28,052 nucleotides of DNA from a virus. The position numbers and the translations under genes are program-made. The stretch's first letter is position 1; every line of letters begins with the position of its first letter. A model generated the notes under the pieces. It saw only the letters and a program-made list of their open reading frames with translations. It did no database searches and was not told the DNA's origin. The stretch lies in the IMG/VR virus record IMGVR_UViG_3300042453_005804, positions 30,001-58,052 of that record; one strand, given 5' to 3'. Below, piece after piece: positions 11,651 through 26,455 of this stretch.

Positions 11651-12823
11651 ATGTCGATCTTTAAGGAACATAAGACAATCGCTGATCGATCCGCCTCCGA
11701 TCGACGTCGTCACAAACAGAAAATCGAGAAGGCAATTCGAGATGGTATTCATCATATTGTCGCTGATGAGAGCATCATAGGTCAAGATGGCAAGAAAAAG
11801 TTCAGAGTTCCTGTTAGAGGAATTAAGGAATACAAGTTTGTCTACGGCGACAACAACGGCAATAAGCAGGTTGGATCGGCTCCTGGTAAGGATGTCAAAC
11901 GAGGCCAAAAAATCGGTGAGGGACAACAGCAAGGTCAAGGAAAACCGCAGAAGGCCAGTGATCAAAAAGGAGAAGAATATTACGACGTTGAGATCACGTT
12001 GGAAGAACTCGCAGAGTATCTCTTCGCTGAACTACAGCTTCCTGAGTTGCAGAGACGTCAACTGTCGAACATATCAGCTGATAAATTAAAGAGAAATGGG
12101 TATCGTACTGACGGTATTCTTCCACGCTTGGACAAGAAGAAGTCTGCAATCGCTCGAATCAAGAGAATGAAGGCGGCTGGATTTGACCCTGAAAAAGCCG
12201 AAGAAGGAGAAACCTTCTCTTTCCACGAAGACGATCTGCGGTACAGACACTTCAAGGTCACACCGAAACCTTGCACCAACGCAGTCATATTCTTCTTGAT
12301 GGACGTCAGCGGGTCTATGACGCAAGACAAGAAGTTCCTGGCAAGATCTTTCTTCTTTTTACTCTACCAGTTCATCAGGTCCAAGTACGAAACGGTCGAG
12401 GTCGTTTTCATCACGCATGACACTGAGGCGAGGGTGGTCGAAGAGAAAGAATTCTTCACGGAAGCGACCAGCGGAGGAACGATTGCATCCAGCGCTTTGG
12501 AGCTGACGTTACAAGAGATAGATAAACGATTTCATCCATCATCGTGGAACATCTACACGTTTCAGGCGTCCGATGGCGATAACTTCTCATCTGATAATGA
12601 AAAGTTCATAAATCTCGCACGTGAGCTAAAAGACATCTGTCAGCTGTACGGTTACTGCGAGATTGAACCTGAAAGGTATTACAATCAAGACAAGCTCCAT
12701 ACAACGATGCAACCTCTCGTCGGACCAAAATTAAAGACCGTTAGAGTGGTAGAGAAGGCAGACGTATGGCCTGCTTTTAGAACATTGATGGGTGGTACAG
12801 GCGTGTCTTTGACCAAAGGATGA
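11651..12823 (+). CDS. yeaH: YeaH/YhbH family protein (DUF444, vWA-like)
   Basis: The N-terminus SASDRRRHKQKIEKAIRD and the MIDAS-like FFLMDVSGSM are typical of the PrkA-partner family UPF0229. Confidence 0.9.
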   Translation: MSIFKEHKTIADRSASDRRRHKQKIEKAIRDGIHHIVADESIIGQDGKKKFRVPVRGIKEYKFVYGDNNGNKQVGSAPGKDVKRGQKIGEGQQQGQGKPQKASDQKGEEYYDVEITLEELAEYLFAELQLPELQRRQLSNISADKLKRNGYRTDGILPRLDKKKSAIARIKRMKAAGFDPEKAEEGETFSFHEDDLRYRHFKVTPKPCTNAVIFFLMDVSGSMTQDKKFLARSFFFLLYQFIRSKYETVEVVFITHDTEARVVEEKEFFTEATSGGTIASSALELTLQEIDKRFHPSSWNIYTFQASDGDNFSSDNEKFINLARELKDICQLYGYCEIEPERYYNQDKLHTTMQPLVGPKLKTVRVVEKADVWPAFRTLMGGTGVSLTKG

Positions 12824-14130
12824 AAATGGATTACACATTAGATACATTGGCAGAATGGGATGATAAAATCTGCAAGTTGGCCAAGGGTCACAATCTCGAT
12901 TGGTTTGAGATTGCCTATGAAACCCTCGATTATTACTCAATGATCGGTGCCATGGCCTATCATGGTCTTCCTACACACTTCGATCATTGGTCTTACGGCA
13001 AAACGTTCGAACAAACCTTCCACCGTTATAACCTAGGTATGGAAGGTTTGCCGTATGAATTAATCATCAACAGTGATCCGTCGATCGCTTACCTCATGCG
13101 TGAGAATCCACTATACCTGCAGATCCTCATCATGGCGCATTGCGTTGGACATAGCGATTTCTTTAAGAACAACAGGATGTTCAAGGCCACACGTCCTGAG
13201 ACAGTCGTGCCTCGGTTCAGAGCAGCGAAGAAGAGAATCCAGTCTTACATTGAGAATCCCAACATTGGTGTGGAAAATGTGGAAGAGGTGATAGATGCCT
13301 GTCATGCAATACAGTTCCAGACGACGAAGTATGGGCAAATTCGCAGAACACATGCGGAGCTCAAGGCGGAATACGTTGAGCTGATGAACAACGACAAGAA
13401 AAATGAATATAAGTTCTTTGACATCAATAGAATTCCCTTAGAACCTGACTACGATTTATTAGGCTTCATATCAGAGCACGGTAAGATGCCTGACTGGAAG
13501 CGTGATATAATTGACGTCTGTCGTGATGAAGGTCAGTACTTCTGGCCACAAATTCAAACGAAGGTGATGAATGAAGGTTGGGCTTCCTACTGGCACTACA
13601 CCATGTGTCATGAATTAGATCTGCCTGATGGTATGCATTTACCTTTTATCAAAATGCACAACCAAGTGGTTCGACCTCATGTGGGCGCGATAAATCCTTA
13701 TCACTTAGGTTTCCATCTCTTCCAGAAGATCAAGGAGAGACATGGCATTGAAGAGTGTTTCATCGCAAGGGAGACATGCCATGATGCTTCTTTCCTCCGT
13801 CAATATCTCACGGAGGAGGACTGTGTGGATCTCAATCTCTTCACGTACTCATCAAAACGTCATGAAGGTGTCACTGTCGATGAGGTTTCAGATGATTTAG
13901 GCTGGGAAGAGGTTAAGAAAGATCTTGTCAACCAAGTGGCAGGTGGATCAATTCCAGCTGTCTTTGTGGACGACGTAAAGAGAGATGGCACATTGATCAT
14001 CAAACATGAGCATGATGGTCGAGATCTAGAATTAAGTCATGCCAATAAGGTCGTGGAACATGTCAAGACCCTATGGGGTAGCGATGTGAAGTTTTTCACG
14101 GTTATTGAAGATGAAACTTGGGAGATTTGA
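12820..14130 (+). CDS. spoVR: SpoVR/YcgB family protein
   Basis: WSYGKTFE...YELIINSDPSIAYLMRENPLYLQILIMAHCVGHSDFFKNN is the SpoVR signature region. The start overlaps the yeaH stop as ATGA. Confidence 0.9.
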   Translation: MKMDYTLDTLAEWDDKICKLAKGHNLDWFEIAYETLDYYSMIGAMAYHGLPTHFDHWSYGKTFEQTFHRYNLGMEGLPYELIINSDPSIAYLMRENPLYLQILIMAHCVGHSDFFKNNRMFKATRPETVVPRFRAAKKRIQSYIENPNIGVENVEEVIDACHAIQFQTTKYGQIRRTHAELKAEYVELMNNDKKNEYKFFDINRIPLEPDYDLLGFISEHGKMPDWKRDIIDVCRDEGQYFWPQIQTKVMNEGWASYWHYTMCHELDLPDGMHLPFIKMHNQVVRPHVGAINPYHLGFHLFQKIKERHGIEECFIARETCHDASFLRQYLTEEDCVDLNLFTYSSKRHEGVTVDEVSDDLGWEEVKKDLVNQVAGGSIPAVFVDDVKRDGTLIIKHEHDGRDLELSHANKVVEHVKTLWGSDVKFFTVIEDETWEI

Positions 14131-14163
14131 TACACTGGAGCAGGGAGAGGTATACATAACAAC

Positions 14164-16098
14164 ATGAGCGTCAAGAAGCAACTACTCAAACAAATTCAAA
14201 CGGCTCGAGAAGAGTCATCCAAAACAAAAAAGTTCTCTGGTAATCTTATGGATTACGTCGACCTCGTCGAGAAAGAACCGTCGATAGTAAAATCAGCGCA
14301 TCGTAGGTTATATGAGGCCATTGAGGAACATGGTTCCTACGTGATGCCTGATTCGGATTCACGTAAATTCAAGGTGTTCGATGGCGATGCCGTGAAGGTC
14401 CACAAGTACTTTGAAGGTGAATTCTTCGGAATGGAGACGGTCATTGACAAGGTCATGTCGTTCCTGTCTTCAGCGGCACATAAGGGCGAGGAATCTCGTC
14501 AGGTTCTTCTTCTCATGGGACCAGTTGGAGCTGGTAAGTCAGCATTAACCGAACACATTAAACGTGCGCTCGAAGGCAAGAAGTACTATCACCTCAAGGG
14601 AGATCCTCATCGTGGTGAACCCCTGCAACTCGTACCACGTTCTCTTCGCTCGGAATTTGAGAAGGCACTCAACGTGAAGATTGATGGAGATATTTCACCA
14701 GTCGCCCGCCACAAGCTTCTCAACGATTACGGCGGTAAATATGAGGACTTCGAGGTTGAGGAGACGACATTCTCGCAACGTGGTCGTAGAGGTGTCGCGG
14801 CTGTTCCTCCAATGGATGCCAATAGTCAGGACGTGTCTGTTCTCATTGGGTCGGTAGATATCTCTAAGTTGGATAAGTTTGCCGAGGATGATCCACGAGC
14901 TCTTTCGCTCACGGGAGCATTCAACGTAGGTAACCGTGGCATCGTGGAACTGGTCGAGGTCTTCAAGAACGAGATTGAGTTCCTCCATACAATCATCACC
15001 GCCACACAGGAGAAGAGGGTTCCATCACCCGGAAAGAGCGATATGCTTCACTTCGACGGAGTCATCCTCGCACACTGTAATGAGGCTGAGTGGAATCGCT
15101 TCCAGTCAGAACACACCAATGAAGCCATCATGGACCGCATCGTGAAGATCGCAGTTCCATACTGTCTTGAGGTGGATCAGGAACAGAAGATCTATGAGAA
15201 GATGCTAGGTAAATCAGACTTCAAGGCACACATCGCACCTCACACCCTCAAGGTTGTATCAATGTTCTCGGTCATGAGCCGCTTGAAGCCATCAGCTAAA
15301 TGTGATTTATTGACGAAAATGAAGATCTATAACGGCGAGGACGTCCTTGAGAAGGGTCGCGTTCGTAAGGTCGACATCAAGGATCTTCGTGAGGAAGCTA
15401 AACACGAAGGCATGGATGGTATCTCTACGCGTTTCATCACCAAGGCATTGGACAATGCCCTCACGGCATCCGACAAGGGAATGATTACACCAGTTTCTGT
15501 CATTGAGTCTTTGACCAAGATGGTGAAGGAGCAGATCAACGACGAGACGTTCAAGACAAAGTGCCTAGAAATCCTCCAAAAGACGGTACGAGAAGAATAC
15601 CTCAAGATCCTTGAGAATGAGATCGCAAAGGCATTTATCTCCGCATACGAGGAGCAGGCTCAATCTCTATTCGATACATATCTCGACAACGCTGAAGCAT
15701 ACACGACCCGTGTCAAACTCAAGGATCGTGTTACAAAGGAAGAGAGAAAGCCAGACGAACAGTTCATGGCTTCGATCGAAGAACAGATCGGTATCAGCGG
15801 TTCAGCCCGTGATGGTTTCCGCTCCGACGTTGCTGCCTACATGTTCGCCAAGATGCGTCGTGGTGAAAAGGTTGGATTCCGTTCCTATGAACCACTCCGA
15901 GAAGCCATTGAATCATTCCTCATCTCATCGGTCAAATCACTTGCTCGAGTCGTGACCAAGAGCAAAACTCGCGACGAGGAGCAGAAGGAAAAGTACAATG
16001 AGATGGTGGCAACACTCATCAAGGATCATGGATACACCGCCGAAAGCGCAGAAGAAATTCTTGTGTATGCTTCAAATAATTTGTGGCGTGACGCGTAA
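14164..16098 (+). CDS. prkA: PrkA/YeaG AAA-type serine protein kinase
   Basis: The product is 644 aa, which from memory matches E. coli YeaG. The Walker A motif is LLLMGPVGAGKS, and the PrkA-type N- and C-domains are conserved throughout. Confidence 0.95.
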   Translation: MSVKKQLLKQIQTAREESSKTKKFSGNLMDYVDLVEKEPSIVKSAHRRLYEAIEEHGSYVMPDSDSRKFKVFDGDAVKVHKYFEGEFFGMETVIDKVMSFLSSAAHKGEESRQVLLLMGPVGAGKSALTEHIKRALEGKKYYHLKGDPHRGEPLQLVPRSLRSEFEKALNVKIDGDISPVARHKLLNDYGGKYEDFEVEETTFSQRGRRGVAAVPPMDANSQDVSVLIGSVDISKLDKFAEDDPRALSLTGAFNVGNRGIVELVEVFKNEIEFLHTIITATQEKRVPSPGKSDMLHFDGVILAHCNEAEWNRFQSEHTNEAIMDRIVKIAVPYCLEVDQEQKIYEKMLGKSDFKAHIAPHTLKVVSMFSVMSRLKPSAKCDLLTKMKIYNGEDVLEKGRVRKVDIKDLREEAKHEGMDGISTRFITKALDNALTASDKGMITPVSVIESLTKMVKEQINDETFKTKCLEILQKTVREEYLKILENEIAKAFISAYEEQAQSLFDTYLDNAEAYTTRVKLKDRVTKEERKPDEQFMASIEEQIGISGSARDGFRSDVAAYMFAKMRRGEKVGFRSYEPLREAIESFLISSVKSLARVVTKSKTRDEEQKEKYNEMVATLIKDHGYTAESAEEILVYASNNLWRDA

Positions 16099-16157
16099 GT
16101 GATATCAAGAATATTCTTCCAATAATTATTTGATGTTGCCAAACACAAATAAATAAA

Positions 16158-16195
16158 AATTCAGGACCAAGGTCGAAAGGCCGAGGTCCTGAATT
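16158..16195. terminator. Repeated hairpin terminator, copy 1 (between convergent prkA and a LamG gene)
   Basis: AATTCAGGACC-AA-GGTC-GAAA-GGCC-GA-GGTCCTGAATT, with T-rich sequence following the hairpin in both reading directions. Confidence 0.65.
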
Positions 16196-16207
16196 GTTTT
16201 CTATAAA

Positions 16208-16978
16208 TCAAACTAAAGAAATACCGTAACGATTGGACAAGTAGTTCAACGTATCTGTGCGTTCAGTCGAGGCATGTTGCTTGTGATAAATTAGAATTTC
16301 AGCAATTTTCCCGACGAATGGACCGTAAGAAGCCTGTGCAAATCCACCAATTCGAAGTTCCGGGCAAGGATTTGGAATATTCCAAGGAACAGCATCCCCG
16401 GAACTTGCAAGTGTGCCAGTTGAACCATTGATCAAAATTTCAGCGCTAGACATGTTTGCACCGCTCGCAGAAAATGCTGCTGAAATTTGTGCGTTTGAGT
16501 TTGCTACATACTTTTTGGAGGCATTGCCGTAACCGTCAACTCCTATTACGTGAGGAGCAGGACCATAATAGCAAAAACACACTCGACCATTAGTAGAACC
16601 TTCTTGACCCCAACCGACGAGACCCAGCAAGTCTGTCGAAAATGTGGGATCATTTACTACATATATGCTAAAAGCACTTGAACCCGTTGACCAATTAGGA
16701 GGTGTGAGACGATACAGCTGCTGAGACCCATTGAAGCTAATAGCCTTTCGACTGTTAAACTCAGGTGAACTTGTAGAGAGTGTGGGTTGAGAGACACTTG
16801 GTACAGGTACCAAGTCGACTCCATTTCCAGATCGATCTGTCCAAGTAAAAACCGTTGAACCATTCGACTGATTGATATCATCTGCCCTGTACCATGCTCC
16901 CAATGAATCCGTGGGTGGGCTGGGTTCAGGTGCAACAACTGCAGGTCTTACTCTAACACCATTTAATTTTATACTCAT
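16208..16978 (-). CDS. LamG/concanavalin-A-like lectin domain protein (paralogue family, type B)
   Basis: The N-terminus is MSIKLNGVRVRP. It has W(Y/F)(R/K)AD...TWTDRSGNG...ISFNGSQ and the C-terminus GKIAEILIYHK...YLSNRYGISLV. It is closest to 24568..25404. Confidence 0.75.
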   Translation of the reverse strand: MSIKLNGVRVRPAVVAPEPSPPTDSLGAWYRADDINQSNGSTVFTWTDRSGNGVDLVPVPSVSQPTLSTSSPEFNSRKAISFNGSQQLYRLTPPNWSTGSSAFSIYVVNDPTFSTDLLGLVGWGQEGSTNGRVCFCYYGPAPHVIGVDGYGNASKKYVANSNAQISAAFSASGANMSSAEILINGSTGTLASSGDAVPWNIPNPCPELRIGGFAQASYGPFVGKIAEILIYHKQHASTERTDTLNYLSNRYGISLV

Positions 16979-17039
16979 AAAGTCCTCTTCTAAATTAGGT
17001 ATATGTATCCGCTTTACAAAGTATCAAAAAGTCATGAAA

Positions 17040-17075
17040 ATTCAGGACCAAGGCTAAAAGGCCGAGGTCCTGAAT
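17040..17075 (-). terminator. Repeated hairpin terminator, copy 2
   Basis: ATTCAGGACC-AA-GGCT-AAAA-GGCC-GA-GGTCCTGAAT. The inner stem differs from copies 1 and 3 but still pairs. Confidence 0.6.
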
Positions 17076-17099
17076 AGTTTTTGTCGTTATGTTTGATGT

Positions 17100-18071
17100 T
17101 TAGATCGTTATGGTCTGTGTTGGTGCTCCGTCAAATTTTTTCCAAACAACAGGAGAAGCACTAGAACAAACGTAGATTCCCGTGTCGGAGTAAACGACAT
17201 CTCCTGCCACGGGAGCGGCAGGCAGTTCAGCCGAGCCATCTGGATTTGCGAAAGCTGTTGCAGAAGGTGTGAAATCAGCAGAATATCTTGCGATACCTTT
17301 GCTGACTCTAATTTCATCGATATATCCGTGAAATGGATATTGAATAGCGTTCAATCTGTCAGCGCCAATTACAACTGCAGCTACGGAATTAGTTGGTACG
17401 TTGGCAAAAGTTGCTCCTTGTCTAATACCATTCCAATAGATGGATGTGTTACCTGAGAGTTTTACTACGGCAAAGTGATACCAGGTTCCCGTTGTTATCG
17501 TTGGAACCGTTCTCGTCACAAGACCAGATGCAGCAAAGCCAATTGTCGTAGAATTTATAATATAAAATTGCCAATCTTGAGAAATGGTAGTTTGATGTTT
17601 TGCAATTGGACACATTTGAGATGCGAGAGAGCTGGGGTTTACCCAACCTTCTATCGTAAAATCTCCTGTACTTAAGTTGAAATCGTTATTATATGAATAA
17701 TAGAAATAGTCACCATTTCCATCAAAATATCCGCTAGACCCGCCAAATTTGCTATCGGTTGTACTAATCTTTGCATTGCCACTAACTGTGGCAGCTTTTG
17801 GTGTATAAGAATTGTCGGTAAACGTCGTGCTGTTGTTTGCTCCATTCATGTGAAGAAGCAAAGAGACTGAAGAGTCTCCTACCGTTGCTATGTATGTAGA
17901 TGAAGGCCCATTGGATGTTAGAGTGCCTGCAGACAAATCCAGACCATCGCCAACAACAACCTGTGATCCATCACCTGCCAAAATTTTTGTTCCATCACCA
18001 GGCCAGGAAACTCCACCACCAGCACCACCAGATGCAGGTTTTATTCTTACGCCATTAAAATTTATAGCCAT
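17100..18071 (-). CDS. LamG (LamG_3-like) domain protein, paralogue family type A
   Basis: The N-terminus is MAINFNGVRIKP. It has GDFTIEGWV...WYHFAVV...IYWNG...GYIDEIRVSKGIARY, the classic LamG_3 pattern. Confidence 0.8.
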   Translation of the reverse strand: MAINFNGVRIKPASGGAGGGVSWPGDGTKILAGDGSQVVVGDGLDLSAGTLTSNGPSSTYIATVGDSSVSLLLHMNGANNSTTFTDNSYTPKAATVSGNAKISTTDSKFGGSSGYFDGNGDYFYYSYNNDFNLSTGDFTIEGWVNPSSLASQMCPIAKHQTTISQDWQFYIINSTTIGFAASGLVTRTVPTITTGTWYHFAVVKLSGNTSIYWNGIRQGATFANVPTNSVAAVVIGADRLNAIQYPFHGYIDEIRVSKGIARYSADFTPSATAFANPDGSAELPAAPVAGDVVYSDTGIYVCSSASPVVWKKFDGAPTQTITI

Positions 18072-18115
18072 AACTACTCCTCAGAGACATCTGTAGACAT
18101 CTCTTAAGAATAAAT
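18036..18115 (-). repeat. Conserved 5' module (first 12 codons, SD and 5'UTR), copy A
   Basis: 18036-18089 is identical to 19968-20021 (54 nt), and similarity continues for about 26 nt more. It includes GAGGAG-TAGTT-ATG. Confidence 0.8.
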
Positions 18116-18149
18116 ATAAATTCAATTATGAATTAGTCATTAAATAAAA

Positions 18150-18183
18150 TTCAGGACCAAGGTCGAAAGGCCGAGGTCCTGAA
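18150..18183 (-). terminator. Repeated hairpin terminator, copy 3
   Basis: The core TTCAGGACCAAGGTCGAAAGGCCGAGGTCCTGAA is identical to copy 1. In minus sense it is followed by TTTTATTT. Confidence 0.65.
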
Positions 18184-18206
18184 AAGTTTTTATTGATTAT
18201 TCTTAA

Positions 18207-19064
18207 TCAGATATTGATGTTTCTGCCTGCCTGATCGAACACCTTCCAGGTAACTGGTGAGGCACTCGTGCAGATGTAAGCTCTATCATCAGAATAGACA
18301 GCTTGACCAACTATTGGGCTCGATGGTAGCTCAACAGATCCATTTGCATTTGAGAAAGCTGAGGCAGGAGGCGTGAAGTTTGCGGTGTAACGACCTACTC
18401 CCTTTGTGACCCTAACTTCATCAACATATCCATTAAGATGATGTGAGGTGTTGTTGGTGGCATTTTTACCAATGACCCATTTGCTTACTGTATTGTTCAT
18501 CGCAGGAGCCACAGCACTGGCGCCAGCCTGTACTCCATTCCAGAACAATCTAAATGTGCCAGAAGTTTTTGACATTGCCCAGTGGTACCAGGTTCCTGTT
18601 GACATTGCTGAAACTGTTCTTGACATGAACCCGCCACCTATAGCATTGTATCCCACCACGATCGTTGTTGAATTTTGAATATCAAAGCCTATATCGTAAC
18701 CGCCGAAAACGCTTTGATAACTTGCAAAAGAATTTAGATTTACCCATCCTTCAATTGTGAAATCACCTGCTCCAAATTGAAGATCTGTTCCTCTGTCAAA
18801 TTCTATGTAATCACCATTACCATCAAATGCCGCAGAAGAACCACCAAACTTACTTGCAGCAGTGCTGATTTTAGCATTGCCGTAAGCGGTGACGGTTTTT
18901 GGTGTATAAGAACTGTCGGTAAATGTCGTGCTATTATTGGCTCCATCCATGTGAAGAAGCAAAGAAACCGTTGAATCACCAACGGGTTGAATATAAGTTG
19001 CTGTGTTTGAATTGACTGGTGCGGCGCAAGGTTTAATTCTTACGCCATTAAAATTTATAGTCAT
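18207..19064 (-). CDS. LamG (LamG_3-like) domain protein, paralogue family type A
   Basis: The N-terminus is MTINFNGVRIKP. It has GDFTIEGWV...WYHWAM...LFWNG...GYVDEVRVTKGVGRY. By eye the N-half is very similar to 17100..18071. AAGGAG lies upstream. Confidence 0.8.
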   Translation of the reverse strand: MTINFNGVRIKPCAAPVNSNTATYIQPVGDSTVSLLLHMDGANNSTTFTDSSYTPKTVTAYGNAKISTAASKFGGSSAAFDGNGDYIEFDRGTDLQFGAGDFTIEGWVNLNSFASYQSVFGGYDIGFDIQNSTTIVVGYNAIGGGFMSRTVSAMSTGTWYHWAMSKTSGTFRLFWNGVQAGASAVAPAMNNTVSKWVIGKNATNNTSHHLNGYVDEVRVTKGVGRYTANFTPPASAFSNANGSVELPSSPIVGQAVYSDDRAYICTSASPVTWKVFDQAGRNINI

Positions 19065-19087
19065 AATTTAATCTCCTTTTATTGTTC

Positions 19088-19993
19088 TCAACCTAAGGTG
19101 TATCTACGCCATGTGGGAACTGCCGCATCAGTACATTCGTAAAGAAAGCCATTGCTGTCTTTGGCCATTTTTCCAAGCTCTGCTGTTGGGTAGGTTAAAA
19201 CCCCTGTTCCAAAAGCTGAAGTGGAAGGGGTGAAGTTTGCACTGTATCTAGCAGTATCAGAGAACCTGACCTCATCAATGTATCCATTAATGGTACGCAC
19301 TCCGGTATCTCCAGGAAGACCGCCGGGTAGACTTAAAGAATGACCTAACCCAATGTCTCCGGCAGATGGCATGCTAAGAAAATAACTGCCTGCTCTTGTA
19401 ACATATAGCGTACCATTAATATAAATTTTGATATGTTGACCTGAAGTGCCAACAATGGCGATGTGATGCCATTGACCAGTTGGCGGAACCCATCCTGGGC
19501 TCACCGCGTAGTGGAAAGATCCTCCATACGAATTTTCAAGGTATAGTTGACCTGCGTTGTTCATTATTAGAGCAGGTCCTTGATACCAAGCTGAAGTATT
19601 AAAATGTATCAGCGACGTCCAAGGTATGAGTGATATGTAGTAGAACCATAACTCAATGGTAAAACTACTTCCACCTGTAGGACCAAAGTTTACCTTGTTA
19701 TTAGTATTAGTGCACTTAAATTTAGAAGCATTATTGCCGTTGAAATACAACGAAGAACCGCCGAATTTTGACTGAGCAGTCTTTATTACGGCAGCTCCTG
19801 AAAATGTTCCTGTTCCTGGATTAGATGAATCATCTGTAAAAGATGTTGATCCATCCGCACCGTCAAAGTGTGCCAAAAATTTCGTGTATGAATCACCAGT
19901 TATTGTTTCGAAACTTGTTATGTTGTTGGAAGGTGATGCTGCACCACCTCCTGCGCAAGGTTTTATTCTTACGCCATTAAAATTTATAGCCAT
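19088..19993 (-). CDS. LamG (LamG_3-like) domain protein, paralogue family type A
   Basis: The N-terminus is MAINFNGVRIKP. It has FTIELWF...WHHIAIV...IYINGTL...GYIDEVRFSDTARY. Confidence 0.8.
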   Translation of the reverse strand: MAINFNGVRIKPCAGGGAASPSNNITSFETITGDSYTKFLAHFDGADGSTSFTDDSSNPGTGTFSGAAVIKTAQSKFGGSSLYFNGNNASKFKCTNTNNKVNFGPTGGSSFTIELWFYYISLIPWTSLIHFNTSAWYQGPALIMNNAGQLYLENSYGGSFHYAVSPGWVPPTGQWHHIAIVGTSGQHIKIYINGTLYVTRAGSYFLSMPSAGDIGLGHSLSLPGGLPGDTGVRTINGYIDEVRFSDTARYSANFTPSTSAFGTGVLTYPTAELGKMAKDSNGFLYECTDAAVPTWRRYTLG

Positions 19994-20047
19994 AACTACT
20001 CCTCAGAGACACCTGCAGATGTCCCACAAGAATAATTATGGCTTAAA
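19968..20047 (-). repeat. Conserved 5' module, copy B
   Basis: See 18036..18115. The UTR here contains the near-palindrome GACATCTGCAGGTGTC just upstream of the SD. Confidence 0.8.
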
Positions 20048-20073
20048 ATCGCCAACGAATTATAATTGTTTAA

Positions 20074-20676
20074 TCACTCAAAGCTATAAGACACGTCGAC
20101 CTTCACCTTGAGGCTAGGCACTCGTAAATGGTTTGCCAGACCGATCGATTGGGCTTCTTCTGCGTCCAAATACCAGTCGGCGTGTGACCTATCATGAATT
20201 TGCTTCAAAAAGAATTCAGGTTCCTTGCCACAATTTGCCGCCATTTCTCTATAAACAAGCTGGTTTAGTCTATCACCTTCTTTTGCGTCGGCCTTGATCT
20301 CTTCGATCTTTCCCCTGGCACCACTAGAAACATCATGGATCATGATGGTGGCGTGCTTATCCATGAAACGATAACCAGAAGTACCGTAGCTGAACAACAA
20401 CGCACCACATGACATGGCCTTACCTTCGACGATTGTTGCCACCGGAATGTTTGAAGCCTTAATGTTTGCGATCATGGACATGAGAGAGTAGACTTGACCC
20501 CCATAAGAGTCTATGACCACTGGGATCATCGTTTGACCCGTGGACTGCGCGGCCGACATTTGATTGGAGAACTTTTCGGCGGCTTCCTCATCAAATTTAT
20601 TCACCCTGATGATCACTGGGTTGTAACGTAGCTCGACTTTTTCTAAACGTTTTGAGATGTCTTTAATGATATTCAT
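20074..20676 (-). CDS. ClpP/S14-family serine protease (cellular-type ClpP or phage prohead-type; not resolved)
   Basis: IPVVIDSYGGQVYS...GKAMSCGALLF (Ser), ATIMIHDV (His) and the C-terminal ADWYLDAEEAQSIGLANHL align with the ClpP Ser-His-Asp blocks. Confidence 0.8.
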   Translation of the reverse strand: MNIIKDISKRLEKVELRYNPVIIRVNKFDEEAAEKFSNQMSAAQSTGQTMIPVVIDSYGGQVYSLMSMIANIKASNIPVATIVEGKAMSCGALLFSYGTSGYRFMDKHATIMIHDVSSGARGKIEEIKADAKEGDRLNQLVYREMAANCGKEPEFFLKQIHDRSHADWYLDAEEAQSIGLANHLRVPSLKVKVDVSYSFE

Positions 20677-20705
20677 ATGTTTTTACAGATTATAAATATA
20701 CAACA

Positions 20706-21080
20706 GGTGGAGCCAACCGGTACTGCCCCGGTGTCCGCAATTCTTCAATCAAACAATTCGTCCACAGGCTTGGAATGATTTTATCGACGCCATCCTAGTC
20801 TATTCGATCTGACCAATTTTACGACCGGTCGGATCGAAACCCGTTAGTCGTCTTCCGGAACCACCTTCCGAGAGAAACCCACCTCATACAATGAGGATAA
20901 CCATTGATTGTGACTTTCTGTTTCTAGGTTGTCACCACCCAACCAGTCAGGCCGCTAGGGCAGCTGGAGCGTAGCCGTTGTCGTTGGCAACTATACGTCA
21001 CTTGGATTTTTACCAGGTTCCTCGTGCACCTGGGCCTGCATAGATCGATGTCAAAACCACGTCGAAACTATTTTGGCCCC
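20706..21080 (-). ncRNA. ssrA: tmRNA (SsrA), standard one-piece form
   Basis: The minus-sense 5' end is GGGGCCAAAAUAGUUUCGACG and the 3' end is GGACACCGGGGCAGUACCGGUUGGCUCCACC. The acceptor stem GGGGCCA/UGGCUCC has a G3-U wobble. Blocks AGGUGCA, GUAAAAA and UAGUUGCCAACGAC match E. coli ssrA. The tag frame encodes ANDNGYAPAALAA then a stop. Confidence 0.85.
20947..20988 (-). other. tmRNA tag reading frame (resume codon GCC to TGA)
   Basis: GCC AAC GAC AAC GGC TAC GCT CCA GCT GCC CTA GCG GCC TGA encodes ANDNGYAPAALAA. The E. coli tag is ANDENYALAA. Confidence 0.8.
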
Positions 21081-21084
21081 TGAA

Positions 21085-21411
21085 TCATTTGCTTTTTCGT
21101 GGTCTTCCTTTTTGCTTATTTCTTGAGGAAGAAGAAGCAGGCACAAATTTTTTAATTAATTCTTCTCTAGGTATTGATTCATTTATTTTCTTAATCTCGT
21201 CTTCTAGATCTTTAATCTTGTTTGTCTCAGACTTTAACCATTTATCGAACCCAGTTGTTACGGTTTTTTGCCAAGAATTTTCCAATGAAGAAAGCATTAT
21301 ATGCTCTATTTTCATAAGAATATCGTGGCGAGAAACAGAGTCGTTCGAAAGTAACACAGCTTTATATAAATCGAGCAATTCTTGCGGCGATAATTGTAAC
21401 ATCATATTCAA
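21085..21411 (-). CDS. Hypothetical protein with an AT-hook-like basic tail
   Basis: The C-terminus is SSSSRNKQKGRPRKSK, with a GRP core flanked by basic residues. The stop lies 4 nt before the tmRNA 5' end. Confidence 0.5.
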   Translation of the reverse strand: MNMMLQLSPQELLDLYKAVLLSNDSVSRHDILMKIEHIMLSSLENSWQKTVTTGFDKWLKSETNKIKDLEDEIKKINESIPREELIKKFVPASSSSRNKQKGRPRKSK

Positions 21412-21929
21412 TCCATCACACCATAAAATAGGTTGGCTTTAAGTAAACTGGTCCATTCCTTTGGAAACTTTGAAACTTGAAAAGTCTTTTCATCACCTTC
21501 CTCATTTACCAGTGTGATTTCTTTTCCGCGGCGGATAACCTGCAAAACTCTATCTCCTTCTTCAACGACAGTTCCATCGTCATTAATGATGTCGAATCGA
21601 AGATCTACATCATCACCAAAAAAAGATAGATTGCCCGTCTCTTCGTCAGAAGTTTTGGCTCGACAAGGAGGCAAATCCATTAAACTCCATGCTGAAACCT
21701 CCTCATCATGAGACCGAAGTTCTACTTTTACTTTTTCATCTTGATCATCCTCTAAATCATTGTCTTCATCATCATGATGAATGAGTTCATCTTCGAGAAG
21801 ATGCATGATTTCTTCAACTCCATCTTGAGTTCTCATACTGACATCTGGGAGCATGAGATAGTGAAAAAGAACGTTATGTAGAAACAACTTTTGTGAAGGT
21901 GTAATTTTCATCATTGTTAAATTAATCAA
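21408..21929 (-). CDS. Hypothetical acidic protein
   Basis: The 173-aa ORF has an HHDDEDNDLEDDQDEK stretch and a 4-nt overlap with the next gene. Confidence 0.5.
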   Translation of the reverse strand: MINLTMMKITPSQKLFLHNVLFHYLMLPDVSMRTQDGVEEIMHLLEDELIHHDDEDNDLEDDQDEKVKVELRSHDEEVSAWSLMDLPPCRAKTSDEETGNLSFFGDDVDLRFDIINDDGTVVEEGDRVLQVIRRGKEITLVNEEGDEKTFQVSKFPKEWTSLLKANLFYGVMD

Positions 21930-21950
21930 TGTAAGATTCTTTGTTCAAAC

Positions 21951-22316
21951 TCAAGTACTTTTTGTGACGTTTACTCCGACGTCAGATAAAATCTGTAGCA
22001 TTTTGCTCGCTGCGGCCGAGTCCGAAGAAATGATGACTCGCTTCGTGGGGTTCTTCCCAATTTCAGCCAACGTAGCTATCGCCCTTGCGGCATGAATGCC
22101 ATCGTAAAGTCTCTTGAACCCGTTGCCGTCGAACCAAGAATCAGGTTCAGCTGCAGAGGAAAGGTCATCATCGAGGTACACGATGTCCCAATCTTGCCCG
22201 TCTATCTGCTGCAAAAATTGTAGGTAACGGTGCGCATGTAACACATCAGAATTTTCGTGGTGCGCTGCAATTGCAAGAAACTCACTCTCAGAATCGTTTA
22301 GAACCAATACTTTCAT
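21951..22316 (-). CDS. Hypothetical protein, possibly receiver-like (cREC-type) fold
   Basis: The pattern MKVLVLND...DIVYLDDDL...NGF...RVIISSDSAAASKM loosely matches phage receiver-like domains. The assignment is weak. Confidence 0.45.
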   Translation of the reverse strand: MKVLVLNDSESEFLAIAAHHENSDVLHAHRYLQFLQQIDGQDWDIVYLDDDLSSAAEPDSWFDGNGFKRLYDGIHAARAIATLAEIGKNPTKRVIISSDSAAASKMLQILSDVGVNVTKST

Positions 22317-22348
22317 TTTAGCTTCCGTTTACTCGCTCCCATTATACA

Positions 22349-22354
22349 TATAAT
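22349..22354 (+). promoter_or_regulatory. Candidate -10 box TATAAT, 8 nt before the ATG at 22363
   Basis: TATAAT-GAGAAATT-ATG lies in a divergent intergenic region. Confidence 0.25.
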
Positions 22355-22362
22355 GAGAAATT

Positions 22363-22767
22363 ATGTCACTTAATAATCCAAGTTCAGGCTTTTTTAGCAC
22401 ACCAGAATTTCAAACTTCAGGTTTGCCATGGACAGTTACAGCTGCCACTAGCGGAGTAATCGTCACCAAGTACTCTTTACCAAAAGTCACTAAAAGTATA
22501 ACTTTCGTGAATACTGACACGACGGCAACCAATAGAATCAGGATTGGATTTACTGAGAATGGAATTAACGGCACAAATTACGTATTAGTAAATGGTGGTC
22601 AAACTATCACCCTTGATGCAAGAGTGAAAGAAATATTCATTAGAGCAAACGCTTCAGGAGCATATACGTACAGCGTTTACTGCGCGTTAACCACGATCGA
22701 TGGAAGGTTCATGCCAATTCTAACCGGTTCTGTCGACGGATCCAATTATTGGGATGGTGTCGGCTGA
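22363..22767 (+). CDS. Hypothetical beta-rich protein (possible virion structural protein)
   Basis: The 134-aa product is T/S/V/G/N-rich with alternating beta-strand-like patterns and no charged low complexity. A structural role is a guess. Confidence 0.5.
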   Translation: MSLNNPSSGFFSTPEFQTSGLPWTVTAATSGVIVTKYSLPKVTKSITFVNTDTTATNRIRIGFTENGINGTNYVLVNGGQTITLDARVKEIFIRANASGAYTYSVYCALTTIDGRFMPILTGSVDGSNYWDGVG

Positions 22768-23324
22768 TCTTTACCCCACTGTCCTCGATAAAACGCCATG
22801 GCTACTGTGGCGGCTGATCCGACGTTCAACGATCTAACCGATCCCCATTGCGGGATGTAGATCACATCATGGGCCGCCACCATTGATTCAGGAGATACCC
22901 CAATTGATTCTTGCCCTAAAACAAGCAATGTATCTTCATACCATTTATAATCATAAATCGAAGAGGCTCCTGGAACATTATCTAGCACGACCACTCTATG
23001 ATTCGGGTTCTTGGAGATAACGCTCCCAATATTCTCTTCATAGTTTACGTGCTCATAATTATGCGTACCGCAAGCTCCGCGCCGATCCCAACGCCTTCGA
23101 CCAACGATGATCACTTCGTTGCACAAGAAAGCATTTGAAGATCTCACGACGGTTGAGATGTTGAAGTCATTTCCAAAATTCTCAGCCACGATTTTCAAAC
23201 GGCACCTGTTCTTGTCTTGGTCGGCTAGGATCGCATCGTGCTCCCAATATTTGTAATAATCGATGACGTTCCTATGATCGAACTGTCCCTGTGGCCACGA
23301 CGGATTTTTCAAGTCACTCATCAA
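22746..23324 (-). CDS. SpoU/TrmH-family RNA 2'-O-methyltransferase
   Basis: NFGNDFNISTVVRSSNAFLCNEVIIVG, LVLGQESIGVS and IPQWGSVRSLNVGSAATVAMAFY match SpoU motifs 1-3. Confidence 0.85.
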   Translation of the reverse strand: MMSDLKNPSWPQGQFDHRNVIDYYKYWEHDAILADQDKNRCRLKIVAENFGNDFNISTVVRSSNAFLCNEVIIVGRRRWDRRGACGTHNYEHVNYEENIGSVISKNPNHRVVVLDNVPGASSIYDYKWYEDTLLVLGQESIGVSPESMVAAHDVIYIPQWGSVRSLNVGSAATVAMAFYRGQWGKDQPTPSQ

Positions 23325-23334
23325 ATTTCCTTTT

Positions 23335-23577
23335 TTATGGCTGTTCGAACGAATTTAGATAAGATAAAGAAAAGAAACCTTTTGACCCATCTTCCTTTAT
23401 GATCTCTGCGAAAGCGTTGTCAGCACCTCCGCTTTTTTCCTCTACAATTTCAAGAATAATTCCTACAGCAAAATCGTCAATGAAGACAGAGGGGGATACT
23501 GACTCATGATAAGATCCAAACTTATCGTAGAGAACCAAATCACCTTTTTTGAATGTAATGCTTTGGGTCATAAACAA
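23335..23577 (-). CDS. Hypothetical small protein
   Basis: ORF in the same-strand train. It has a KKGDLVLY...GIILEIV pattern similar to 2670..2888. Confidence 0.45.
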   Translation of the reverse strand: MFMTQSITFKKGDLVLYDKFGSYHESVSPSVFIDDFAVGIILEIVEEKSGGADNAFAEIIKEDGSKGFFSLSYLNSFEQP

Positions 23578-23791
23578 TCTCTATATTTCTATGGCGAACC
23601 TCATCTCGCCAATCTTCGATGGACCCCCAAGGTGCCGTGACGCCTGCCACGTCTACACGCTGTATCTCATCCTCTAAAATATCCGTTATCATTAATGGCC
23701 GATCAGGTCTTGCAACGTGGATGAAAACCATCCCAGCTGCAGGAGGCGGAACTCGCAACTCAATCCACGTAGGTTTTCTAAACATTTCCAT
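23540..23791 (-). CDS. Hypothetical small protein
   Basis: ORF in the same-strand train. It overlaps the tilS 3' end by 14 nt. Confidence 0.45.
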   Translation of the reverse strand: MEMFRKPTWIELRVPPPAAGMVFIHVARPDRPLMITDILEDEIQRVDVAGVTAPWGSIEDWRDEVRHRNIEIVYDPKHYIQKR

Positions 23792-24404
23792 GGTTTACCG
23801 CCTCTTTCTTCTCATCTTTAATATACATCTTCTTTACAACCTTGTCAAGACCAGGATTAATCACCATCGCCTCAGGAACAATTTTGTGACGAATCAAGTT
23901 CCTCATATACTTCAAATCGTTATTGGATTTATCCTCCACCCACTTCAATCCTTTTTTCTCCGCCCAATCAATCAGCTCAGACTTTGGGGTGATGAGAAAA
24001 GGCCTGATGACGTTGTTCCTCTGGTAGGGCAACACCCTAGGATTTCCATGGAGAGAATTGAAGATCCATGTTTCCACCGCGTCTCCAAGGTGATGGGCGG
24101 TAATAACAGGAAATTCGTACATCGAAAGGAAACGATACCTTTCATTCCTCCAGTATTCCTCCATCGATTCCCCAGGAGGTTTTTCACCGCTGATCCGCCC
24201 GATTGAGAGCGTGAGGTTACGTTCCTTGGAAAATTCCTTGGCGAATACCTCGGCCTCATCGGACGTCGCAGTTCCATGGTGAAAAAACGCCAGGTGAACA
24301 TCACGTTTACCGTTCAGAAGGAAATCAGTTACAGCCACCGAATCAACTCCGCTGCTGAAGGCAACAACGCACTTCCGAGGTAGCTTTCCTAGGAACCTGA
24401 TCAT
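23778..24404 (-). CDS. tilS: tRNA(Ile)-lysidine synthetase TilS, N-terminal PP-loop ATPase domain only
   Basis: The PP-loop is AFSSGVDS. Other matches are HLAFFHHGT..SDEAEVF, WRNERYRFL, ITAHHLGDAVETWIFNSLHG and IRPFL...KSELIDWAEKKGLKWVEDKSNNDLKYMRNLIRHKIVP. At 208 aa it lacks the C-terminal tRNA-binding domains of long TilS. Confidence 0.85.
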   Translation of the reverse strand: MIRFLGKLPRKCVVAFSSGVDSVAVTDFLLNGKRDVHLAFFHHGTATSDEAEVFAKEFSKERNLTLSIGRISGEKPPGESMEEYWRNERYRFLSMYEFPVITAHHLGDAVETWIFNSLHGNPRVLPYQRNNVIRPFLITPKSELIDWAEKKGLKWVEDKSNNDLKYMRNLIRHKIVPEAMVINPGLDKVVKKMYIKDEKKEAVNHGNV

Positions 24405-24567: not shown

Positions 24568-25404
24568 ATGGCAATAGTGACAAAAGGATCCGGTGGATCC
24601 ATCAAATTTAGCGGAACAGGCGGTGGTATAAGCATCACTTCATCAGGCGGTGGTGGCGGCGGCGGCGGAGGAGGATTTGATCCATCTTCTCTAGGTAATC
24701 TCAGCTCTTGGTTTAAGGCTGACGCATTGGGTCTATCAAATGGAGCTACCGTCACATCATGGACGGACAGTGCAGGTGGAAACACTCTGAATGGATATGG
24801 CGGTACTCCCACTTATAACGCATCTGATGCTCAATTCGGCAACATGCCTAGCGTTAGCTTCAATGGGTCTTCCTTTCTTTACAAAAGCTCTCCATCGGGT
24901 CTACCATCAGGCGCCACAGCGTACTCAATGTACGTAGTGGCTTATGCTGATAACACCAACTCTGATTCTACTTTTACCATCTTAGGTTGGGGACAGGCGG
25001 CGACGATGGCGCAGGCCTCGGTAAGTTCATTACAACCAGCATGGGGCGGTCCTGCTTACTTCATAAATTACAACACTGGTGATTATGCTGTTAAGAAAAA
25101 TGACGCGCACGGGCCCCCTGCGGTCGTAATATCCGTGTCTCTGTCAGCAGGTGCTCACCCTGCCACTACAGAGTTATATGTAAACGATCAAGTAGGGACT
25201 GTTCAGCCAGGCTATGCAGGTTATGGTTATACTCTGTCTATTAATCCAGTTATGCTAGTCATAGGATCTGCAGTCGGCGACCTTGGAATACGTAATTTCT
25301 GTGGTAAGTTTGCCGAAGGTTTAATATACAGCGAGCAACACGATAATACTAAGCGTCTTCAAGTTACGCAATACCTAGCAAACAAATACGGAATATCGAT
25401 CTGA
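24568..25404 (+). CDS. LamG-like lectin domain protein with a Gly-rich N-terminal module (type B)
   Basis: The N-terminus is MAIVTKGSGGSIKFSGTGGGISITSS followed by G10. It has WFKADAL...SWTDSAGGN...VSFNGSS and the C-terminus GKFAEGLIYSE...YLANKYGISI. Confidence 0.75.
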   Translation: MAIVTKGSGGSIKFSGTGGGISITSSGGGGGGGGGGFDPSSLGNLSSWFKADALGLSNGATVTSWTDSAGGNTLNGYGGTPTYNASDAQFGNMPSVSFNGSSFLYKSSPSGLPSGATAYSMYVVAYADNTNSDSTFTILGWGQAATMAQASVSSLQPAWGGPAYFINYNTGDYAVKKNDAHGPPAVVISVSLSAGAHPATTELYVNDQVGTVQPGYAGYGYTLSINPVMLVIGSAVGDLGIRNFCGKFAEGLIYSEQHDNTKRLQVTQYLANKYGISI

Positions 25405-25431
25405 AGAAACGTAATAAACCTTTAAGGTTTT

Positions 25432-25463
25432 CGGGTGCAATTTATTTTGCACCCGTTTTATTT
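25432..25463 (+). terminator. Intrinsic terminator
   Basis: CGGGTGCAA-TTTATT-TTGCACCCG is followed by TTTTATTT. Confidence 0.65.
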
Positions 25464-25519
25464 GAGCGGCATTAGTTAATAACTACAGACAGAGAAATGA
25501 ACTTTGTCGAGGAGATTTT

Positions 25520-26314
25520 ATGGCTATAAAGATAACAGGTTCAGGTGGTTCGTTCAGACTTAGAGGAACAGGGGGAGGTATGAAGGTTACTTCGTCGGGA
25601 GGGGGAGGTAGTGGCGGAGGTTCTCCCATCGTCTCGTCGGGTTTAATCCTCCATCTCGACGCAGGTAACCCAGCATCCTATCCTGGCAGCGGTACAACAT
25701 GGACCGACTTGAGCGGAAACGGAAAACATGCCACACTCTACAATTCGCCGACTTATTCAGCAACGAATGGCGGGATAGTATCGTTCAGCAAACCTTCCAC
25801 ACAGTATGCGGCCGGTCCTGCTCTCGGTGCTCAGACCGAATGGACCATCTGCATGTGGGTCAGAAGGGATGCAGACGATCCCTCAGGGTCTGAGCAGTTT
25901 TTCACCGACGAGACCTCACCAAGTGGGAATGGAAGCGTCAACTATTGCTTAGGACACCTGTACTCAACATCAGGAGTCTCAACAAACACATATGTCATTG
26001 GCAATAATTGGTTCGGCACCTCGGGTTCACCCTTCTCAGCGACCCTTGGCGCCTTCTACTTCCTTGTCGGTATGAAGGACTCAGCAGGATTCAAATTGTA
26101 CTCCAACAATTCCTTGGTGGCCTCTTCGGCGGCGGGGGCAATAGGAGGATTAAATGGTTTGGAAGGCTACAGAATTGCCTCCAAATGGACCGGTTACGCA
26201 TCCCCTGTGTACCTGTCATGTACCGTAGGTTCCGTAGCCTTCTACAATAGGGCGCTTAACACCAGCGAACTAACACAGAACTGGGATGCTACTAGAACAC
26301 GTTTCGGTCTGTGA
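25520..26314 (+). CDS. LamG (LamG_3-like) domain protein with a Gly-rich N-terminal module
   Basis: The N-terminus is MAIKITGSGGSFRLRGTGGGMKVTSSGGGGSGGGS. It has LILHLDAGNPASYPGSGTTWTDLSGNGKHATL...WTICMWV...VAFYNRALNTSEL. Confidence 0.8.
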   Translation: MAIKITGSGGSFRLRGTGGGMKVTSSGGGGSGGGSPIVSSGLILHLDAGNPASYPGSGTTWTDLSGNGKHATLYNSPTYSATNGGIVSFSKPSTQYAAGPALGAQTEWTICMWVRRDADDPSGSEQFFTDETSPSGNGSVNYCLGHLYSTSGVSTNTYVIGNNWFGTSGSPFSATLGAFYFLVGMKDSAGFKLYSNNSLVASSAAGAIGGLNGLEGYRIASKWTGYASPVYLSCTVGSVAFYNRALNTSELTQNWDATRTRFGL

Positions 26315-26424
26315 GCGTGAACCACCTACACAAAAAGTATGATTGCACAAGATGCCAACAAACATGGCGGTCACATGCCCAAATCACCTGGTTTCATTGA
26401 TTATGCTTAAGTAGTGCTTTTTCA

Positions 26425-26455
26425 GGCAGGATATTTCTATCCTGCCGTTTTTTAT
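26425..26455 (+). terminator. Intrinsic terminator between convergent genes
   Basis: GGCAGGATA-TTTC-TATCCTGCC is followed by GTTTTTTATT. Confidence 0.6.

Follow-up and report, generated by a model that had tools for sequence, protein, structure and literature searches.

Candidate accessory fibre genes with exchangeable LamG-like heads in a metagenomic phage of apparent jumbo type

Introduction

Phage receptor-binding proteins (RBPs) and tail fibres of the modular kind, be they those of the lactococcal phages p2 and TP901-1 or the mosaic fibres of the T-even and lambdoid phages, combine a conserved N-terminal attachment part with an exchangeable C-terminal head. Fibres and spikes that contain collagen are also known, amongst them the products of collagen-like tail-fibre genes and spikes of the PRD1 P5 type, and some phages, such as CBA120 and phiK64-1, carry multiple tailspikes. 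Here we describe six small genes with lectin-like domains, in two clusters, within a 28,052-nt stretch of viral DNA (positions 30,001 to 58,052 of IMG/VR record IMGVR_UViG_3300042453_005804; below, the window). We refer to the genes as cassettes and name each by its lowest coordinate. An earlier note on this DNA, made from the letters alone, had proposed them as a diversifying receptor-binding or fibre cassette. We favour, with some reserve, the view that their products are fibres or adhesins of a jumbo phage, small and modular in build, which would be accessory, probably trimeric and attached to the virion.

The likeness to modular RBPs lies in a conserved N-terminus followed by a variable distal domain, in breakpoints that fall at module borders and in heads that are swapped between near-identical genomes. 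The differences are that the attachment module of the tandem cassettes has only about 12 residues, rather than being a folded shoulder domain, and that the cassettes, known here from their genes, lie outside any recognisable tail module and are dispensable in relatives. Collagen-like proteins of prophages have been described (PMC3368898). As in collagen-containing fibres, Gly-X-Y shafts stand directly upstream of the heads in orthologues of the cassettes, which implies trimers and a variable shaft length; unlike those fibres, the six window genes lack collagen, and the heads are LamG domains instead of known knob folds. The combination of several glycan-binding heads with one shared attachment module, and the bet-hedging that it suggests, is reminiscent of phages with several RBPs and, conceptually, of the Streptomyces umbrella toxin particles, which bear six diversified lectins (PMC13274773). 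Here the parallel is again drawn at the level of genes, and the attachment modules share no homology with those systems. Cultured jumbo phages (>200 kb) likewise have several small stand-alone or tandem paralogues of the concanavalin A (ConA)-like type (gp1, gp62-64 and gp195 of Burkholderia phage S13; the gp311-314 region of FLC9; ORF089-090 of Ralstonia phage RSF1), but identity to these is only ~31-34% over the domain.

Domain architecture of the six genes

The six open reading frames (ORFs) are found at the positions and on the strands that the earlier note had given (Table 1). All belong to the ConA/LamG superfamily, in two subfamilies. Four of them exceed the gathering score (27.6 bits) of Pfam PF13385, Laminin_G_3 (ConA-like lectin/glucanase superfamily): 17100 and 18207 (63.1 bits and E 4e-17 each), 19088 (66.0 bits, 5e-18) and 25520 (40.3 bits, 4.7e-10). 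The other two, 16208 and 24568, have no Pfam match; they are 34% identical to each other and form the second subfamily (B), which is placed in the superfamily only by profile-profile comparison and predicted fold. In the former, hhalign aligned the subfamily-B profile (A5) with the LamG profile (A4) over 192 columns, with a probability of 94.8% and an E value of 5.4e-8. Searches with the subfamily-B profile retrieve many PF13385 proteins and, when exhaustive, more than 40,000 proteins, mostly repeats within giants of 2,000-6,000 residues. The idea of six paralogues thus stands at the level of the superfamily, with four reaching the Pfam family itself; the motifs cited for it, FTIEGWV, WYHxA, (I/L)(Y/F)(W/I)NG and GY(I/V)DE(I/V)R, are confined to 17100, 18207 and 19088. 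Nothing exceeds the cut-off in NCBIfam, and none of the six matches a known defence protein in PADLOC.

The nearly invariant 12-residue N-terminus, here called the anchor, that the earlier note had seen in the four tandem genes is indeed common to them; it reads M[ATS]I[NK][FL]NGVR[IV][KR]P, or MAINFNGVRIKP. At the DNA level it is a 43-nt repeat family, 72-95% identical, and a search with a degenerate DNA pattern located it, within IMG/VR, only in this lineage. The N-terminus of 24568 and 25520 is different, MAI(V/K)(T/I)(K/T)GSGGS(I/F)(K/R)(F/L)(S/R)GTGGG, and comprises three short strand-plus-GGG units. Between N-terminus and head there may be a Gly-rich linker, a repeat of the form WPGDG...GDGL.LSAG.L or, in relatives, a collagen triple helix. 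Subfamily-A proteins end in a beta module of ~45 residues (G..VYS..G.YVC.S.SP..WK), which is portable, as in one relative (locus L008) it precedes a discoidin head. The predicted arrangement of a conserved N-terminal module and a variable distal lectin-like domain is borne out, as is the similarity and subsequent divergence of 17100 and 18207: these are 49% identical overall, with 75% identity over residues 58-125, 45% over residues 126-258 and 56% in the C-terminal module.

Three further identifications proved unsupported. The WPGDG repeat as an adenovirus-type shaft beta-spiral gave only noise in phmmer searches against the PDB and in Pfam, and is not claimed. The C-terminal module is not supported as foldon-like, a PDB profile search having returned no fibritin or foldon match and Pfam nothing. 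That the 12-mer is a capsid-targeting or propeptide signal for the nearby ClpP-like protease is a remote possibility at most: relatives without the array keep ClpP beside prkA, which makes the adjacency of ClpP and array positional, and collagen shafts fit poorly with internal head proteins.

Exchange of heads and shafts between related genomes

A PrkA-based search supplied related viral contigs from IMG/VR, the longest of 361 kb, and the loci compared are numbered L001 onwards. Direct evidence for exchange comes from L006 and L007, in which the backbone is ~99% identical to the window whilst positions 16200-17917 and 24623-26452 cannot be aligned; in L007 both are replaced by unrelated sequence. 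The breakpoints are the exact end of the first copy of a terminator repeat (16200), codon ~51 of 17100, codon ~18 of 24568 and, in the large ORF next to the second locus, the stop codon. Within the cassette genes they follow directly on the N-terminal module. Gene 16208 is replaced as a whole gene, and 24568 can be aligned over its first ~18 codons only, the remainder having been replaced. The third gene of the L007 array retains the first 55 residues of 17100 (96% identical) and continues into an unrelated head; the fourth has the exact 13-residue N-terminus of 16208, followed by a repeat shaft and a LamG head. Since the L007 genes keep the N-termini of their positions but carry other heads, the anchor is specific to the array position and the head exchangeable. 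At the second locus, 25520 is present in neither L007 nor L011, where a single gene of 311-313 aa is found instead, and 19088 is the stable member of the array (99% identical to its L007 orthologue). A third type of head, of ~270 residues and beginning GGWQTVLDIDFTTQAAQTF, occurs in L007 (11004-11972, plus strand) and L011 (12052-13053, minus strand); it is borne on the anchor-plus-repeat N-terminus and has no Pfam or PHROG match.

In 18207 the divergence is confined to the LamG core, which has 63-72% nucleotide identity to L007, and the synonymous divergence (dS) between the orthologues is 0.08 for residues 1-40, saturated for residues 81-160 and 0.03 for residues 241-285, compared with 0.03-0.08 for the backbone genes (ClpP, PrkA, SpoU). 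The ratio of nonsynonymous to synonymous divergence (dN/dS) is below 1 in every segment tested in this comparison. With dS saturated only in the core, these values indicate an allele imported by recombination and held under purifying selection; 'diversifying' in the sense of positive selection in situ is accordingly not supported. A diversity-generating retroelement (DGR) likewise finds no support as the mechanism: no reverse-transcriptase likeness was recognised among the window ORFs of at least 150 aa (translations and Pfam matches), the repeats of the array are paralogous gene segments and terminators, and the divergent tract of ~600 nt with saturated dS is unlike the ~100-150-nt variable repeat of a DGR.

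The reverse pattern is seen in L011, where the backbone is 87-92% identical to the window and the head and terminator of 17100 are 96% identical. The L011 orthologue of 17100 also contains an additional collagen insert of 52 residues, (GPQ)6(GAT)10. The 18207 head has counterparts of at least 82% identity behind three kinds of N-terminus, namely the anchor alone, the anchor with repeat, and collagen; in the last case Pfam Collagen (PF01391) lies N-terminal of heads 82% identical to the 18207 head (proteins P0004 and P0006). Collagen is also encoded in L008 and by four tandem genes of a 57-kb contig, and the collagen-shafted genes of L008 and L094 carry discoidin or LamG heads. Amongst the relatives, therefore, the shaft ranges from none through the Gly/Asp-rich repeat to collagen, and the head may be LamG, LamG-like, discoidin or of unassigned type.

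The number of cassettes at the PrkA-ClpP site varies as well: four in the window and L007, two in L011, one in a 122-kb contig and none in L027, L012 and L029; of these, L012 is also without the ClpP block, and L029 has a 434-aa gene at the site. The arrays of L001 and L002, of the same lineage at strain level, are identical to that of the window. Where cassettes are missing, other accessory genes are found, so that both sites behave as general insertion hotspots; the cassette-less site of L012 holds a 255-aa ORF (13184-13951, minus strand) that by eye resembles a DNA methyltransferase, and the 434-aa ORF of L029 (11992-13296, minus strand) by eye resembles a glycosyltransferase. The cassette exchange and variation of the array that the earlier note had anticipated between related genomes are in this way directly visible. 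The comparisons show that heads and shafts are swapped between co-circulating phages by homologous recombination at conserved borders, with the consequence that nearly identical genomes differ in the number and kind of their heads.

Predicted structures

AlphaFold2 (AF2) models of one member of each subfamily are confident beta-sandwiches (pLDDT 87.5 for 17100, confident over residues 60-323; 87.9 for 16208, with ConA-like folds among its Foldseek matches). The best PDB match of the 16208 model, over the full length, is chain p of 9vyh, the tailspike of the cyanopodophage Pan3 (TM-score 0.63/0.61, E 1.8e-8). This 269-aa chain, a virion protein that is small, stand-alone and LamG-like, also matches the 17100 model, but it is only 18% identical to 16208 and gives no match at the sequence level. 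The closest solved folds for the two models are otherwise domain 4 of AbnA, the receptor-binding fragments of tetanus and botulinum toxins, sialidase or trans-sialidase, and pentraxin, with the carbohydrate-binding module CBM40 and a type IV pilus PilC entry as further matches. Structure prediction had been put forward earlier as a means of telling fibre modules from enzymes; on these models, what both folds match are non-catalytic modules of lectin or carbohydrate-binding type and a chain of a phage tailspike, and not dedicated enzymes.

Affinity to structural proteins of phages is seen at the level of domains. In BFVD, which holds predicted viral structures, the best are phage LamG proteins, some of them named 'Tail protein', 'Baseplate wedge initiator' or 'Structural protein'. 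PHROG matches are to families of 'virion structural protein' and 'baseplate wedge subunit', in domains inside giant proteins. Pseudomonas phage SCUT-S3 has the homologous domain as the C-terminal end of a 1108-aa tail protein, whose gene comes downstream of that for the tape measure, a few genes away.

Terminator repeats and leader hairpins

A terminator-hairpin repeat of 57 nt (family D3) has three copies in the window, all within the array and behind three of the four tandem genes, and is kept in the arrays of the closest relatives. The copy at which homology to L007 ends has a folding free energy (dG) of -20.5 and a z-score of -4.8.

Cassettes 1 and 3 are preceded by leader hairpins in which an upstream arm, AUAAUUAUUCUU, pairs with the Shine-Dalgarno sequence and the AUG. 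A 21-nt core, TGTCTCTGAGGAGTAGTTATG, is confined to these two leaders, and relatives whose inner stems are quite different share the design. Across seven leader sequences 85% of cells are paired, where slid controls reach 43-52%, and both partners have changed in four pairs; as the seven are partly related, this conservation is suggestive only. The design recalls that of T4 late genes with translationally silent read-through transcripts. The sequence ATAWTTATTC was considered as a general late-promoter motif and discarded: it is matched exactly at the two cassette leaders and nowhere else, and matches with one mismatch are at chance level.

Genome setting and neighbouring genes

The window is part of a metagenomic contig of ~282 kb (ENA ERZ27272082 k141_1258463), near-identical copies of which are present in JGI metagenomes. 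In gene content this freshwater phage resembles the jumbo phages; it has GroEL, Fpg, the DUF444/SpoVR/PrkA operon, a ClpP-like protease, tmRNA, a SpoU methylase and a TilS-like gene. Positions 14000-24000 gave no megablast match amongst cultured phages at the DNA level, which means that there is no close cultured relative. The array has DUF444/SpoVR/PrkA on one side and ClpP, tmRNA, SpoU and the TilS-like gene on the other, and these last four are bracketed by the two cassette clusters, as the earlier note had described.

The DUF444-SpoVR-PrkA operon (yeaH/ycgB/yeaG-like) is kept in at least 80 IMG/VR viral contigs (loci L011-L090; PrkA identity 64-100%), many of them of 200-360 kb, and is also found in Thermus phages, Ralstonia phage RsoM2USA and uncultured phages of ~600 kb. 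It is a stress-kinase module and seems to be a hallmark of the jumbo-phage group concerned. The ClpP-family protein matches cellular-type ClpP (Pfam 5e-27; NCBIfam below threshold) and also the phage 'head maturation protease' (phrog_94 7e-23; NF045542 60 bits, cut-off 120); to judge from these matches, it may serve either tmRNA-linked proteolysis or as a prohead protease. ARAGORN reported no tmRNA in the window and Rfam found one; on the Rfam match, the tmRNA of the earlier note is real.

Two other tracts of divergence adjoin the plus-strand cassettes. A cluster of 22 single-nucleotide polymorphisms (SNPs) at 23491-23939, covering the 3' half of the TilS-like gene and sequence downstream, separates the window from the otherwise almost identical L001 and L002; against L007, identity here is 78-91%, with ~99% in the backbone, and the region looks like a second recombination tract next to that locus. 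The large ORF at the window end is also more divergent than the backbone (75-90% versus ~99%, against L007) and has a SNP cluster at 27171-28036 relative to the otherwise identical L001. Its N-terminus, as seen in L012, has a signal peptide, MNRKLFSVLLFLVAFVTTFCVSLTVRAQ, and then an LLLVDSSVSM motif that is vWA/MIDAS-like in appearance; by eye the protein resembles a PilY1-type pilus-tip adhesin, and it has no Pfam or PHROG match.

Table 1. Cassettes, RNA elements and neighbouring genes, in coordinates of the window
Feature	Position	Strand	Description
Cassette 4 (16208)	16208..16978	-	256 aa; 12-residue anchor MSIKLNGVRVRP, Pro-rich linker, divergent LamG-like head (subfamily B)
Cassette 3 (17100)	17100..18071	-	323 aa; anchor, 36-residue Gly/Asp-rich repeat (WPGDGTKILAGDGSQVVVGDGLDLSAGTLTS), Laminin_G_3 head, ~45-residue C-terminal module
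Cassette 2 (18207)	18207..19064	-	285 aa; anchor, Laminin_G_3 head, C-terminal module
Cassette 1 (19088)	19088..19993	-	301 aa; anchor, Gly-rich linker, Laminin_G_3 head, C-terminal module
Second-locus cassette (24568)	24568..25404	+	278 aa; other N-terminal module (three strand-plus-GGG repeats), subfamily-B LamG-like head
Second-locus cassette (25520)	25520..26314	+	264 aa; N-terminal module of 24568 type, Laminin_G_3 head
Terminator-hairpin repeat, copy 1	16144..16200		57 nt (TTCAGGACC...GGTCCTGAA); 3' of cassette 4 and of convergent prkA
Terminator-hairpin repeat, copy 2	17025..17081		3' of cassette 3
Terminator-hairpin repeat, copy 3	18134..18190		3' of cassette 2
5' leader hairpin of cassette 1	19988..20043	-	dG -32.8 kcal/mol, z -7.6
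5' leader hairpin of cassette 3	18068..18119	-	Cassette-1 design; dG -19.3 kcal/mol, z -3.4
DUF444-SpoVR-PrkA operon	11651-16098	+
ClpP-like protein	20074-20676	-	200 aa; between the two cassette clusters
tmRNA	20705-21080	-	Rfam RF00023, 76 bits, full model; directly upstream of ClpP-like gene
TilS-like gene	23778-24404
Large ORF	26452-28052	-	1413-1414 aa; runs off window end; complete in L012 13930-18171 (-)

What the proteins may do

Like known RBPs and tail fibres, the cassettes are conserved at the N-terminus, in the presumed attachment part, and mosaic towards the C-terminus when related phages are compared. This mosaic, the lectin-type folds, the domain-level likeness to structural proteins and the collagen shafts of the orthologues together support virion-attached fibres with glycan-binding heads. 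Each gene is a unit of its own, with a 5' module made up of leader hairpin, ribosome-binding site and anchor codons, and a terminator hairpin after three of the four tandem genes. Its product would consist of a short docking module (the 12-mer in the tandem array, the Gly-punctuated three-strand motif at the second locus), an optional fibrous spacer, and a head with a beta-sandwich of carbohydrate-binding type from the LamG/ConA-like superfamily. The proteins may trimerise, dock on the virion via the conserved N-terminus and bind host-surface glycans, thereby broadening or retargeting adsorption. They would not be the sole essential RBP; the existence of close relatives without the genes is the reason for regarding them as accessory adhesins.

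Several observations weigh against this scheme. Relatives with 81-92% identical PrkA have no array, which makes the proteins non-essential and at most accessory fibres. Genes for phage RBPs are expected in a tail or baseplate module, and the setting here is one of auxiliary genes; no capsid, tail or baseplate family was recognised in the 28-kb window or within 10 kb on either side of the related loci. Every link between the cassettes and structural proteins is a similarity at the level of domains only, and in cultured jumbo phages the ConA-like paralogues are entered as accessory or without known function. The collagen shaft is absent from all six window genes, neither the WPGDG repeat nor the C-terminal module has any Pfam or PDB match, and the monomer model of 17100 is of low confidence over the N-terminal 60 residues.

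A more ambitious version, which we think improbable, would make the locus a plug-and-play array. The 12-residue docking peptide would then be enough to mount any head on the virion, and the 5' module and repeated terminator would serve as portable homology arms between co-infecting jumbo phages. Leaders that bury the Shine-Dalgarno sequence and AUG might keep read-through transcripts silent, such that only transcripts begun inside the hairpin are translated; single fibres could in that case be expressed conditionally, giving a regulated bet-hedging of adsorption specificity.

Amongst explanations that depart from accessory adsorption fibres, the one that fares best, unlikely as we judge it, is decoration of the head (capsid) or neck: trimeric lectins on capsid vertices or hexamers would provide weak, reversible sticking to glycans, of the Hoc or head-fibre kind, without a role in host range. 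Genes that are accessory, missing in relatives and outside the tail module would be expected on this account, and a very short docking peptide would suit a repeated lattice site. The PHROG labels include the category 'head and packaging', and one LamG homologue (P0137) carries PF05521, a head closure (head-tail joining) domain, as a fusion partner. However, the PHROG category labels are generic, and among cultured homologues the best annotated belong to the tail or baseplate; the sequence itself does not discriminate head from tail.

Decidedly improbable, in our view, is that the proteins are lectins made during infection that never join the virion, being instead released at lysis or active within the cell, for instance in masking receptors on debris or neighbouring cells or in binding host polysaccharide. 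The setting amongst auxiliary metabolic and translation-related genes would agree with this, as would the adjoining 1413-aa ORF, which has a signal peptide and looks envelope-directed, and the position of the ConA-like genes of S13 and RSF1 amongst non-structural genes. Yet none of the six proteins has a signal peptide or a hydrophobic N-terminus, collagen or repeat shafts and a docking-type N-terminus are hard to explain on such a view, and the mosaic pattern is typical of adsorption proteins. It is very improbable that the heads are tailspike-like enzymes, with glycoside hydrolase or depolymerase activity of the ConA-like 'glucanase' type. The subfamily-B model does match the catalytic domain of GH54 arabinofuranosidase (TM-score 0.58-0.60), some profile matches carry PF09206, and 'tailspike' is the annotation of the best fold match. 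Against this, no solved enzyme is matched at the sequence level, the top matches of subfamily A are non-catalytic modules, and 3keto-disac_hyd reaches only E 0.07, under its cut-off.

Significance

Mosaic fibres with swapped heads, collagen-containing phage fibres and phages with several RBPs are already classical. What is particular to this locus is the very short anchor, the non-structural placement, the dispensability of the genes, a terminator repeat confined to the array and a leader in which the Shine-Dalgarno sequence and AUG are occluded. As mosaic adsorption genes are long established, we regard the array as a well-resolved example and not as a new principle. If the proteins are virion fibres, the locus would be a natural map, for an uncultured freshwater jumbo-phage lineage, of the seams along which lectin heads, shafts and a minimal docking peptide can be taken apart and reassembled. 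Such a map would help to predict the plasticity of host range from metagenomes and to guide the engineering of fibre heads, and the multi-copy ConA-like genes of cultured jumbo phages, so far unexplained, would gain a function.

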